IMG/VR virus record: IMGVR_UViG_3300037297_000386
Reading direction: 5' to 3' (one strand)
Origin: a virus
Lineage: Duplodnaviria > Caudoviricetes
Length of the DNA stretch: 64,000 nt
Under the pieces are notes generated by a model, which was given only the letters and a program-made list of their open reading frames with translations, ran no database searches and was not told the origin of the DNA. The translations under genes and the position numbers were made by a program. How positions within the stretch are numbered: the first letter of the stretch is position 1; each line of letters begins with the position of its first letter. Below are positions 48,252 to 63,971 of this stretch, piece after piece.

Positions 48252-48653
48252 TTACACTCCTGACAACCTTTCTATTAATTCTTCTTTTCTAATTTCATCT
48301 AATTTATTTTTAGCTTCCTTCATAGATTTTCTATTATTTTGAATAGCTTTATTAATTCTTTTTATATCATTTTTTAATTTGATTATTTTATGCTCAGTAA
48401 ATATTCGATCTTCATCTTTTTCAGATCCCAAAATTTTATCTTCAGTAAAATCAGTCACCATACGATAGATATAACTAGTTCCATGGGTCGCAGTTGCCCA
48501 ATAATGTATTTCAGTCGTTGGTTTTTTATTTTTTGCCAAAGTAGTTCTTATAGTTATTTTATTAATATGTGTATTTTTTATTTTATTATTATGTTTATAA
48601 TATATTTTTTCTCCAATAGAATATTTTAAATCAACATTGTTATTAATTTTCAT
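48252..48653 (-). CDS. SH3-like plus coiled-coil hypothetical protein
   Basis: LKYSIGEKIYY; C-terminal coiled coil. Confidence 0.5.
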   Translation of the reverse strand: MKINNNVDLKYSIGEKIYYKHNNKIKNTHINKITIRTTLAKNKKPTTEIHYWATATHGTSYIYRMVTDFTEDKILGSEKDEDRIFTEHKIIKLKNDIKRINKAIQNNRKSMKEAKNKLDEIRKEELIERLSGV

Positions 48654-49243
48654 TTATCTTCTCCTACAATAAATCTTGAAAATCTTCTAATAACTATATT
48701 TTCACCAACTTTGTTTATTAAATTACTAAATAAATCAGTAATGTTTAAATTATCGTCTTTAATATATTTTTGTTCCATCAAACAAACTTCTTTAAAAAAT
48801 TTATTTAATTTTCCAACCATTATCTTATCAACAATATGTTGAGGTTTATTTAATATTGTAAATTTTATAATTTCTTTCTCTTGTTCAATTATATCCTGTG
48901 GAATTTGTTCTCTAGATATCCATCTTGGGTTGGTTGCTGCAATATGCATAGCAACTTCTTTGGCAAATTTTTGAAATTCATCGCTTTTGGCCACAAAATC
49001 AGTTTCACAGTTAATTTCTACAATAACTCCAATCTTATTACCAGCATGTATATAATACCCTATTGTTCCCTCAGAAGTCGTTCGGCTAGATCTATTAATA
49101 ATATCAGATAATCCTTTTTTTCGTAAATATATAATAGCTTTTTCAATATTATTATTACTATTTATAAGTGCTTCTTTACAATCCATTACCCCAGCCCCTG
49201 TTTTTTCTCTAAGATTACGAATTTCGTGTATACTTACAGACAT
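48650..49243 (-). CDS. tsf: Elongation factor Ts, short form
   Basis: LREKTGAGVMDCKEAL, YLRKKG, EGTIGYYIH, VEINCETDFVAK, AMHIAA, ENIVIRRFSRF; 197 aa. Confidence 0.97.
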   Translation of the reverse strand: MSVSIHEIRNLREKTGAGVMDCKEALINSNNNIEKAIIYLRKKGLSDIINRSSRTTSEGTIGYYIHAGNKIGVIVEINCETDFVAKSDEFQKFAKEVAMHIAATNPRWISREQIPQDIIEQEKEIIKFTILNKPQHIVDKIMVGKLNKFFKEVCLMEQKYIKDDNLNITDLFSNLINKVGENIVIRRFSRFIVGEDK

Positions 49244-54362: not shown

Positions 54363-55556
54363 TTACATTCCTGTTCCTACTACTGTATATTTATTACTAG
54401 TAAATATTTTCTGTGCAACTTGGTATACATCTTCTACAGTTACTGCATCTATTTCTGATAAAAATTTAGATCCGATTGTATAATCAAAAAATTCTTTATA
54501 TATTGACTGCATAGTTGCCGAATTTGAAGAATCTAATGATTTATAATAAGAACTACGTATTATATTTTTTGCTCTCTTTAGTTCATCATTAGTTGGGCAA
54601 GAGGATTTCATTTTTTCTATTTCTTCATCAATAGTATCTGTAACTTTATCTCTATTTTTAGGTTCAGTAGAAGTATAAATTTGATATACGCTACCGTCCA
54701 TGTGATGGTCATTATATGATCCTATGCCACATACTAAACCAAGATCTTCACGAACTCTAGTAAACAATCTAGACGTATCGCTGGACCCGAAAATAGTCGA
54801 AAATACTTTTATTTTAGCACGATCTTTAAGTGAGGATATCCTTAATGATTCTCCAGCAAAACCAATAGATATTGAATCTTGAATTTGTCCATCTTTATGT
54901 ATTATATCGTATGATGGTTGCTTGTATGTAATATTATTTGTTTGTGCGGGATATAATAATATATCATCCGGAATATTAAAATATTTTTCTACAAGATCCA
55001 TGCGATCTGACGGAGATCCTAATGTTATTAACATATGCTCATTGGTATAAAATTCTTTATTAAATTTTGTTATATGATCACGTGTTATAGAATTAACACT
55101 TTTTTCTGTGCCGACAATTGGAGATACCAAAGAGTTATCTTTAAAAATATTATCAACCATCTTATAGTAAACCAACCAATCTAAATCATCTTCATACATT
55201 TTAATTTCTTGACAAACAACATCTTGTTCTTTTATTAACTCATCCTCTGGAAAAATTGGGTTTAGTATAATATCAGAAAGACACTTAAAAGCAGTTTCAA
55301 TATTCTCTTCAGGAATACTCATATGATATAATACAAGATCAGCACTTGTCCATGCATTCCATGAACCACCATAGTCTGCTGTTTGTTTTAACAGATCCTT
55401 CGCTGTATATTTTTTAGTACCCTTGAATCTCACATGTTCCATATAATGTGCTATACCTTTTGGATATGTACTATTATATTCAACTCTAGATCCGGCACCA
55501 AAAGCTATCATTAAAGTTGATAATTTACTCGGATGCTTTACAAATTTATATTTCAT
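54363..55556 (-). CDS. M16-family zinc peptidase
   Basis: Inverted zinc motif HYMEH in GIAHYMEHVRFKG, NAWTS, EQDVVCQEI, SRLFTRVREDLGL. Confidence 0.93.
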   Translation of the reverse strand: MKYKFVKHPSKLSTLMIAFGAGSRVEYNSTYPKGIAHYMEHVRFKGTKKYTAKDLLKQTADYGGSWNAWTSADLVLYHMSIPEENIETAFKCLSDIILNPIFPEDELIKEQDVVCQEIKMYEDDLDWLVYYKMVDNIFKDNSLVSPIVGTEKSVNSITRDHITKFNKEFYTNEHMLITLGSPSDRMDLVEKYFNIPDDILLYPAQTNNITYKQPSYDIIHKDGQIQDSISIGFAGESLRISSLKDRAKIKVFSTIFGSSDTSRLFTRVREDLGLVCGIGSYNDHHMDGSVYQIYTSTEPKNRDKVTDTIDEEIEKMKSSCPTNDELKRAKNIIRSSYYKSLDSSNSATMQSIYKEFFDYTIGSKFLSEIDAVTVEDVYQVAQKIFTSNKYTVVGTGM

Positions 55557-55603
55557 TCTTACTCCATAAATTTAATCTGCATATATAGTTCCCTAAAATA
55601 CGG

Positions 55604-55942
55604 TCATTTGTGACCAATAAGTTCTTGGGTAGAGGAGACTATAGGCTTCCCCCTTGAAACATTCCAATAGAAACCTTTTCTATTTTTATGCTTCAATCGT
55701 GTTGCCTTCATAATCGAAGGCAAAGGCGTAGCAATATTACAGGCAGCGTTATAATCCGAATCGCATTCATACTTGCATGCTTCGCATTGAAAGTGCTTGC
55801 CTTTTCTATTACTACTACGAACCCAGCCACAGTTACTACACCTTTGTGAAGTGTAAGTAGGACTTGTGTATTCTACGGAACATCCTTGGGATTTACATAA
55901 ATCTTCTAACTTACGGTAGATTTCGGTGTAGGTAGAGTGGCA
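55604..55942 (-). pseudogene. tnpB: 3-prime fragment of an IS200/IS605 TnpB (RuvC-II flank, zinc finger, RuvC-III); no start codon
   Basis: Hand translation ...YTEIYRKLEDLCKSQGCSVEYTSPTYTSQRCSNCGWVRSSNRKGKHFQCEACKYECDSDYNAACNIA...KHKNRKGFYW...ELIGHK; in-frame TAA immediately upstream; GGTCA-CAAA-TGACC hairpin at 55602-55615. Confidence 0.9.
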
Positions 55943-56083
55943 TTATCCATTTGTTTAAAATAATCCATAAAAAACTCCAAAGCTATCAAATATACTAATA
56001 AATATTATAAGAAAAGCCGTATTTAAAATATAATATATTAATAAAAAAAATTAATATTTATTAGATATATTCAATAACCAAAT

Positions 56084-58035
<1,952 letters not shown>

Positions 58036-62227: not shown

Positions 62228-62674
62228 TTATCTTTTTCTTTTGGGATCAATACTGGCCTTAATCCACTCCTCTTTAGTTAATTTCTGTCCATTCAAGTAC
62301 CAATACTTAGCACCATTAGGATATTCAATAGCAGGACCATCTTCACGATGAAGCTTTCCATCCAAGTACCAATACTTAGTACCATCGGAATATTCAACAG
62401 CGGGACCGTCTTCGCGGTGACGTCTTCCATTAAGGTACCAATACTTAGTACCATCGGAATATTCAATAGCAGGACCGTTTTTACGATGGTATTGGCCATT
62501 CAAATACCAATACTTAGTACCATCTGTATATTTAATGATATAGGTTCCAATTTCAACATCAAGTGGTTCTATTGTAATAGGATTTCCATATTCATCTTGC
62601 CAGTGGATCTCATTTCTTGTTTTAGTGGTAAGACCTGCTAACAGGGCAGTATAAGCATTGTGTAAAATAGTCAT
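62228..62674 (-). CDS. Leader plus WYLNGxxHRxDGPA 23-aa repeat protein (array member A)
   Basis: MTILHNAYTALLAGLTTKTRNEIHWQDEYGNPITIEPLD then three full repeats. Confidence 0.85.
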   Translation of the reverse strand: MTILHNAYTALLAGLTTKTRNEIHWQDEYGNPITIEPLDVEIGTYIIKYTDGTKYWYLNGQYHRKNGPAIEYSDGTKYWYLNGRRHREDGPAVEYSDGTKYWYLDGKLHREDGPAIEYPNGAKYWYLNGQKLTKEEWIKASIDPKRKR

Positions 62675-62749
62675 TTTATCCTTATATTATTTATCTTTAA
62701 AAATTTATTAGCGATAAAAATATTAATAATTTACAAAATTTAAAAATAA

Positions 62750-63187
62750 TTATGTTTTACTAGTGCGTGTCTTAATCCACTCTTCTTTAGTTAATTTCTG
62801 TCCATTTAAATACCAATACTCAGAACCATTAGGATATTTAATAGCAGGACCATCTTTGCGATGAAGCTTTCCATTCAAGTACCAATACTTAGCACCATCA
62901 TAATATTCAACAGCAGGGCCATTTTCACGGTGAAGGTCCCCGTTCAAATACCAATGTTTAGTACCATTGGAATATTCAACAGCAGGGCCATTTTCACGGT
63001 GAAGGTCCCCGTTCAAATACCAATGTTTAGTACCATTGAAATATTTGAAGATATAAGTCCCAAGTTTAATATCAAGTGGTTCTACTGTAATAGGATTTCC
63101 ATATTCATCTTGCCAATGAATCTCATTTCCTGTTTTGGTAGTAAGTCCTGCTAACAGAGCAGTATAAGCATCATGCAATAAACTCAT
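62750..63187 (-). CDS. Leader plus WYLNGxxHRxDGPA repeat protein (array member B)
   Basis: Start MSLLHDAYTALLAGL at 63187, ATGA overlap with member C. Confidence 0.85.
   Translation of the reverse strand: MSLLHDAYTALLAGLTTKTGNEIHWQDEYGNPITVEPLDIKLGTYIFKYFNGTKHWYLNGDLHRENGPAVEYSNGTKHWYLNGDLHRENGPAVEYYDGAKYWYLNGKLHRKDGPAIKYPNGSEYWYLNGQKLTKEEWIKTRTSKT
62902..63038. repeat. Exact 68-bp tandem duplication with 69-bp period inside member B
   Basis: AATATTCAACAGCAGGGCCATTTTCACGGTGAAGGTCCCCGTTCAAATACCAATGTTTAGTACCATTG at 62902 and 62971. Confidence 0.95.
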
Positions 63188-63537
63188 TCTATTCGTTTTC
63201 CATGTTCCCATTCTTCTTCCGAATATTTCCGTCCATTTTTATACCAACAAGTAGTTTTACCATGTTGTTGCCCATCTTGCCATTCTTTTTCCCAATGTTT
63301 TTGTCCGTTCCTATACCATCTGATATATTTACCATGAAGTTGGCCATTTTGATATTCTGATTCCCAATATTTTTGCCCATTCCTATGATAATAACGAATA
63401 ATATATCTCTCTTGTTTAATATCAATTAATTTTATCGTAATGGGAATACCATATTTATCTTGCCAATAAATCTCACTTCCTGTCTTACATGTTAATCCTG
63501 CTAGAAGAGCAGTATAAGCATCGTGTAATAGTGCCAT
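63184..63537 (-). CDS. Leader plus MORN-variant (YwqK-like) repeat protein (array member C)
   Basis: MALLHDAYTALLAGLTCKTGSEIYWQDKYG then YHRNGQKYWESEYQNGQLHGKYIRWYRNGQKHWEKEWQDGQQHGK. Confidence 0.85.
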   Translation of the reverse strand: MALLHDAYTALLAGLTCKTGSEIYWQDKYGIPITIKLIDIKQERYIIRYYHRNGQKYWESEYQNGQLHGKYIRWYRNGQKHWEKEWQDGQQHGKTTCWYKNGRKYSEEEWEHGKRIE

Positions 63538-63971
63538 TACTTCTTCCCTATTAAATTATTAAACTCTTCTTCGGTCAAGTGTTTGCCATTTAGGAACCAT
63601 GCTTTGGTACCATCTGCCCACACAACAGCAGGACCATCTTCACGATGTAGTTTGCCATTTAGGAACCAGTATTTGTCGCCACCTGCATATTCAATAGCAT
63701 GGCCATCTTCACGATGTGGTTCACCATTTATACACCATGCTTTAGTACCATCTACCCGTATAGCAGCAGGACCGTCTTCGCGGTGAAGCTTATCATTCAA
63801 GTACCAAAACTTATCACCACCAACATACCTAACAATATAGGTACTAATTTTAATATCAAGTGGTTCGACAGTGATAAGTTTTCCACTTTTATCTTCCCAA
63901 TTAATCTCATTTCCTGTTTTGGTAGTAAGTCCTGCTAATAGGGCAGCGTAAGCATCATGTAATAGTGTCAT
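63537..63971 (-). CDS. Leader plus WYLNGxxHRxDGPA repeat protein (array member D)
   Basis: MTLLHDAYAALLAGLTTKTGNEINWEDKSG then three repeats; TAATG overlap with member C. Confidence 0.85.
   Translation of the reverse strand: MTLLHDAYAALLAGLTTKTGNEINWEDKSGKLITVEPLDIKISTYIVRYVGGDKFWYLNDKLHREDGPAAIRVDGTKAWCINGEPHREDGHAIEYAGGDKYWFLNGKLHREDGPAVVWADGTKAWFLNGKHLTEEEFNNLIGKK

Follow-up and report, generated by a model that had tools for sequence, protein, structure and literature searches.

A truncated tnpB gene lies between groL and an M16 peptidase gene in the window, the whole stretch of 64,000 nucleotides that was analysed, which is phage DNA with terminase and tail fibre genes. The question it raises is whether such a leftover is a relic, or whether the part that survives still supplies a guide RNA to a nuclease encoded elsewhere. 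An earlier note on this DNA leaned to the second answer: it described a non-autonomous IS200/IS605 derivative whose guide RNA might be used in trans and might even regulate the peptidase.

The tnpB fragment and the probable deletion behind it

The remnant and its two flanking genes, placed as the earlier note had them, are all read from the minus strand:

54363-55556, minus strand: M16 peptidase gene, right flank, 81% identical to that of the element-free relative described below
55585-55941, minus strand: surviving IS607-type element DNA, 357 bp, comprising the 3' third of tnpB and the right end (from DNA identity to the relative L003, with boundaries from other copies)
55604-55941, minus strand: tnpB fragment, residues ~295-405 of a 405-aa protein, with the zinc ribbon and RuvC-III D356 kept
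55606-55604, minus strand: tnpB stop, TGA
56084-57769 (about), minus strand: groL, left flank

The frame with the TSQRCSNCG and FQCEAC motifs quoted in the earlier note runs for 112 codons from stop to stop (55604-55942, minus strand) and matches PF07282 (E=2e-17). It was correctly said to have no start codon of its own, the first in-frame start being an internal ATG at codon 78, and an in-frame stop, TAA at 55945-55943, stands just upstream. Its longer relatives are TnpBs of 405 aa, 85-94% identical across the fragment. Against these the catalytic part is indeed deleted, with D208 (RuvC-I) and E278 (RuvC-II) missing and D356 (RuvC-III) present. The fragment DNA is 87% identical to L003 over 358 nt. 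Full-length copies part from the window sequence at 55941, where the L003 alignment also places the left boundary, and the element thus extends from 55585 to 55941 instead of 55590 to 55990 as first proposed. No second tnpB, tnpA or scaffold was found within the 64-kb window.

Native phage DNA adjoins the remnant upstream of 55941. The remnant cannot be mobilised because its left end is absent, and the term non-autonomous element has to be given up: judged from its junctions, the remnant is a stranded deletion product and not a PATE- or MITE-like mobile derivative. It resembles the PATE-like elements of G. stearothermophilus (PMC10055086) in carrying an omegaRNA without its own nuclease and relying on TnpB encoded elsewhere. 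PATEs, in contrast, keep both ends and are mobilisable, whereas the remnant keeps the right end only and appears to have arisen by a deletion that also removed flanking phage DNA.

The left junction might also be an artefact, with a repeat collapsed in assembly and the groL flank thereby set against the interior of tnpB. The element is repeated in many copies in the sample, the locus as a whole is covered by no one Logan contig, and the letters of the window at 55710 and 55832 are absent from every aligned contig. Yet the left junction is spanned by a Logan contig of 3386 nt (depth 18.5, 0 differences) that includes 37 nt of element, and the right junction by a second one of 3625 nt (depth 19.8) that includes 47 nt. 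The left junction, moreover, lies inside tnpB and not at a repeat edge. Since both junctions are bridged by independent contigs at single-copy depth (~19x), an assembly join is very unlikely.

In an element-free related phage (L097-L100), to which both flanks are ~85% identical at the DNA level, the gene order is groL, a 68-aa gene (L097:6786-6992), M16 peptidase. The window follows L097 from the groL stop through a TATAAT-like block, a TTGAT, a ribosome site and nine codons of the small gene, and continues as tnpB from 55941. The native DNA and its fusion to the element comprise:

56015-55998, minus strand: TATAAT-like motif, inside the block of the next line
55985-56015, minus strand: native intergenic block, conserved in the element-free relative
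55978-55975, minus strand: ribosome site GGAG of the small-gene stub
55942-55968, minus strand: stub of the native 68-aa gene, first nine codons (MDYFKQMDN), fused out of frame to tnpB DNA, with 22 of 27 nt equal to the L097 gene start
55968-55906, minus strand: 20-aa chimeric open reading frame from the fusion of stub and tnpB

The retention of the nine-codon stub, joined out of frame to tnpB, points to a single deletion. The small gene, destroyed here, is for that reason dispensable in the window's phage. Its 68-aa product belongs to no Pfam or PHROG family and has sequence relatives only within its own cluster, its Atlas matches being unnamed hypothetical clusters. The TATAAT-like block is seen 5 times where 1.7 would be expected, a weak excess, and a sigma-70 scan gave 4 sites against 3.5 expected and is uninformative. 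No closer phage relatives were found in IMG/VR by the peptidase or the right-end pattern. The comparison with related phages that the earlier note had suggested yielded an empty site, which fixes both boundaries and makes of the locus a clean, datable case of an IS607-TnpB insertion and a deletion that also destroyed a native gene.

The history of the locus may be reconstructed as follows. A copy of a multi-copy IS607-type element, with a serine-recombinase tnpA and a tnpB nuclease, would have landed 28 nt ahead of the start of the M16 peptidase gene, at a point that the element-free relative suggests was just after the 68-aa gene. A later deletion, of which the junction is seen and the size is estimated at ~1.2-1.8 kb, would have extended between codon 9 of the small gene and codon 294 of tnpB. 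With it would have gone what remained of the small gene, the target motif and the left end, as well as tnpA and the 5' part of tnpB with its catalytic half. The 357-bp remainder can neither transpose nor give rise to a nuclease. Transcription that starts at the native upstream promoter or in groL probably continues into it, and its RNA may be loaded by intact TnpBs of the phage, but no target for that RNA is present in the 64-kb window.

Family, ends and predicted target motif

The assignment to IS200/IS605 does not stand. L003, the closest relative with DNA, carries an IS607 transposase directly upstream of tnpB (NF033518, 167 bits against a cut-off of 110; PF00239), and the junctions are GTAT on the left and ACTAT on the right. 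Serine-recombinase motifs lie upstream of tnpB in 22 of 77 relatives, and the upstream transposases recognised among the relatives are all serine recombinases, none of the Y1 type. A tnpA is absent from the remnant and from the window, and it is because the closest relative carries an IS607 serine transposase that the remnant, by this kinship, is of IS607-type origin. Nearly all members of the clade come from phage and metagenome contigs, with 1 match among 185,579 genomes, and cultured phages gave only distant TnpBs (<30%).

The TTGAT that had suggested an ISDra2-like element is present at 55989-55985, 43 nt upstream of the fragment, but it is not a target motif. The word occurs 315 times in the window (both strands), and at the corresponding position of the element-free relative it is present too (L097 6758-6762), followed there by the native gene start, so that it is native phage DNA; it was rejected as a target motif on these two grounds. 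ISDra2 TnpB (IS200/IS605, PMC8612924) shares with the present element the TnpB fold and a guide taken from the right flank, whereas here TTGAT belongs to the native flank and the right end reads AACTAT.

55585-55590, minus strand: right end AACTAT, with AACTA in 34 of 34 aligned relatives, the final T in 33 of 34, and the next column variable

Copies elsewhere, on contigs from two other runs, stop aligning exactly at 55585. The GGTCA-CAAA-TGACC hairpin overlapping the stop is present as reported, at 55615-55602; as a candidate for the element end it was rejected, since AACTA is invariant in the relatives, conservation then collapses, and the other copies end at 55585. The right end so placed is 17 nt beyond the hairpin and 28 nt before the peptidase ATG.

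On the left, GTAT was found at one fixed offset in 8 of 10 matches to an internal-motif anchor chosen without regard to GTAT, and also in L004 and L005. What is said here on junctions, the sub-clade mentioned below included, draws on the left ends of L004, L005, L009, L020, L025, L030, L031, L039, L079 and L101 and on the loci L041, L051, L058, L059 and L095. Pairs of copies diverge just upstream of the left GTAT. The GTAT of the left junction and the ACTAT of the right share TAT, a short common core of the kind that IS607 elements have in place of terminal inverted repeats. A GTAT at 55995-55992 was considered as the left junction of the remnant and rejected, being native, conserved in L097 and upstream of the small-gene start. 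In L097 a GTAC lies within 2 nt of the predicted junction, where the alignment is ambiguous, and its match at 3 of 4 positions is weak support.

In ISXfa1, the one-base difference between GGG and CGG spares the intact element (10.1101/2023.08.09.552727). The left and right junctions of that element, like those described here, share a core and differ in one upstream base, GGG/CGG there and GTAT/CTAT here, and because of this parallel GTAT is the predicted target motif (TAM) of the clade. In the literature that was searched, no paper gives a GTAT target motif for TnpB, and the motifs published for IS607-type elements are GGG, TGGG, AGGAG and GAGGG. Compared with the characterised members, namely ISXfa1 and H. 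pylori IS607 (10.1101/2023.08.09.552727), CboIStron (10.1101/2023.11.20.567912) and ISFba1 (PMC11061315), the junctions here are AT-rich and lack the GG core dinucleotide, and this copy lacks the left end, tnpA and RuvC-I/II. Common to all are a serine-recombinase tnpA (here in the relatives) and a scaffold of ~140 nt over the 3' end of tnpB, with stem-loops and a pseudoknot involving the scaffold 3' end; that of ISXfa1 has 144 nt and is followed by a 17-nt guide (10.1101/2023.08.09.552727). A more distant sub-clade appears to have GTGT and ACTGT junctions, matching an ACAGT pseudoknot loop. The junctions thus predict GTAT and GTGT as target motifs. As a relic the remnant itself matters little, and the GTAT/ACTAT junctions of a phage-associated TnpB clade are the more useful by-product.

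The omegaRNA scaffold and its predicted guide

The part of the element that escaped deletion includes these features:

55585-55724, minus strand: omegaRNA/reRNA scaffold, full model length, from a 111-bit match, fold and covariation
55654-55696, minus strand: long stem (55696-55689 with 55661-55654), capped by a hairpin at 55684-55666
55631-55653, minus strand: covarying hairpin, whose loop ATAGT (55642-55638) pairs with the terminal ACTAT (55589-55585) as a pseudoknot
55602-55615, minus strand: GGTCA-CAAA-TGACC hairpin, the variable last stem-loop of the scaffold
55565-55584, minus strand: predicted guide, the first 20 nt of the right flank and part of the peptidase 5' leader, placed from the right-end position

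The proposal that the omegaRNA-encoding end was kept is well borne out. In cmsearch, a model built without the window matched the remnant over its whole length at 111 bits, within the range of intact relatives, and the folding of its final 140 nt is far stronger than that of shuffled sequences (z=-5.0). Over 34 relatives, 93% of cells are paired and 16 of 26 pairs show double changes, with 0 of 500 shuffles as high. Partners that were slid are only 40-52% paired, a comparison that favours the unslid version in that the fold of the window itself had supplied part of the structure. Helix 4, the covarying hairpin, is 97.5% paired with double changes in 6 of 6 pairs, and the pseudoknot is 99.4% paired and nearly invariant, with 1 compensatory change; such a pseudoknot is general and required in TnpB omegaRNAs (10.1101/2023.11.20.567912). 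No pair-breaking changes were found in the main scaffold helices, so that base pairing is retained relative to intact relatives. An Rfam search returned no relevant family. The scaffold is, as modelled, complete and folding-competent. In a side match, a second and weaker scaffold (52 bits) lies at L033:3221-3347 (minus strand), on the opposite strand to that tnpB and overlapping its 5' start.

The guide had been taken as the ~40 nt 5' of the peptidase start. Only 28 nt lie there, and the guide would be ~17-20 nt counted from 55584; the 20 nt listed above end at the first G of the peptidase GGAG ribosome site (55565). Within the 64-kb window the full guide matches only the locus itself, where the match is preceded by CTAT.

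Age of the remnant and the possible use of its RNA

Identity to intact copies is 84-94% for the remnant, and 89-95% among those copies themselves. Three residue changes (F296S, N312Q, T371M) are private to the remnant, and each of 10 intact copies has 0-2 private changes. By these comparisons the remnant is young and no longer constrained as a protein. Another 5'-truncated tnpB, in another genome (L050:6001-6657, and L053; residues ~195-395), has a top-scoring intact scaffold, and a 5'-truncated copy with an intact scaffold is a known kind of leftover, of which the remnant is a further instance. The intact copies P0001-P0004 and P0049-P0055 look like mosaics, in which a small number of variant blocks are shared and hardly any change is private to one copy. 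This suggests frequent recombination or gene conversion among them.

We think it probable that the remnant is a neutral, slowly decaying relic of an IS607-type insertion and a subsequent deletion. Its scaffold would have survived because 217 nt separate it from the end of the deletion and because the copy is young, and given that youth an intact scaffold is no sign of selection. Two observations pull the other way. The lack of pair-breaking changes in the main helices also fits selection, and intact cognate TnpBs are very probably present, so that the RNA could be active in trans. The earlier note had suggested looking for such TnpBs, and at least four (P0001, P0002, P0004, P0053) are probably in the same 312-kb phage genome, all keeping D208, E278 and D356 (D-E-D). 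The contig on which these four are recorded is 311,797 bp long, and so is the longest contig that carries the M16 peptidase, GroEL and EF-Ts of the window.

A working trans guide would mean that these intact TnpBs process and load the omegaRNA and cut the empty allele, GTAT followed by the peptidase leader, in co-infecting relatives, so that recombination carries the remnant allele across or competitors suffer damage. Besides the complete scaffold and the four D-E-D proteins, element dosage is in keeping with this. In the probable source run the flanks have a depth of ~19, against 124-155 for individual contigs that cover the element. Element DNA is thus at least ~8x as deep as the flank, and near-identical copies must be many. 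Trans action on protein-less elements has been proposed (PMC10055086), and purified TnpB processes RNA substrates in vitro (PMC10278001). Loading of the remnant RNA in trans by the phage's TnpBs is plausible. Cutting of an empty allele fits the data less well: the one relative with an empty site has a different seed and GTAC in place of GTAT, the source run is without an empty-site joint, and the TAM is itself a prediction. A guide search in viral contigs gave 3 exact 18-mer matches, in unrelated context and without GTAT, that we judge to be chance. The only RNA run has no contig matching the locus with its flank. Its element contigs, with 7 and 12 differences, are other copies, given these differences and the unlike flank of one that runs 64 nt into other sequence past 55585, and DNA carry-over is possible. 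On balance, a working trans guide at this locus is unlikely.

The weakest of the readings is that the remnant regulates the M16 peptidase. A guide-bound TnpB-derived protein would repress the gene, or TnpB binding or processing of a read-through transcript near the ribosome site would alter translation. The predicted guide is indeed peptidase leader, ends at the GGAG site (55565) and has the same orientation as the upstream promoter-like block. A guide from the right flank is automatic for every insertion, however, and CTAT, not GTAT, precedes the match, the self-avoidance arrangement seen as CGG against GGG in ISXfa1 (10.1101/2023.08.09.552727). All four TnpBs seen, probably from the same genome, keep D-E-D, and the arrangement is absent from the element-free relative. 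Repressors of the TldR kind have a dead nuclease and act at a site flanked by a TAM (10.1101/2023.11.30.569447). The present locus shares with them a phage context and a guide complementary to the upstream region of a gene, but no nuclease-dead full-length protein is seen among the four TnpBs, the 64-kb window holds no second, TAM-flanked target copy, and the arrangement is not conserved in the relative. The RNA-guided regulation raised in the earlier note is highly unlikely, because no nuclease-dead partner was seen, no GTAT stands beside the target, and the RNA run is without a contig of the locus with its flank.

On a broader scale, right-end-only omegaRNA cassettes, the present one included, might be kept by the phage and loaded in trans by its intact IS607 TnpBs as a dispersed guide library against the empty-site alleles of competing relatives, immobile remnants then spreading by homing without a left end or transposase. 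We regard this as rather improbable. Should orphan right ends prove to direct cutting in trans, they would represent, in the competition between phages, a simple step between the guide of a transposon and a guide library of the CRISPR kind.

As to the genes around the remnant, inspection of the translations showed no groES beside groL, and the window also has genes for EF-Ts (48650-49243) and for trigger-factor-like and DnaJ-like proteins. At 62228-63971 lies a run of paralogous genes with a common LLHDAY.ALLAGL leader followed by short MORN-like repeats; one gene of the run (63184-63537) has another repeat type.
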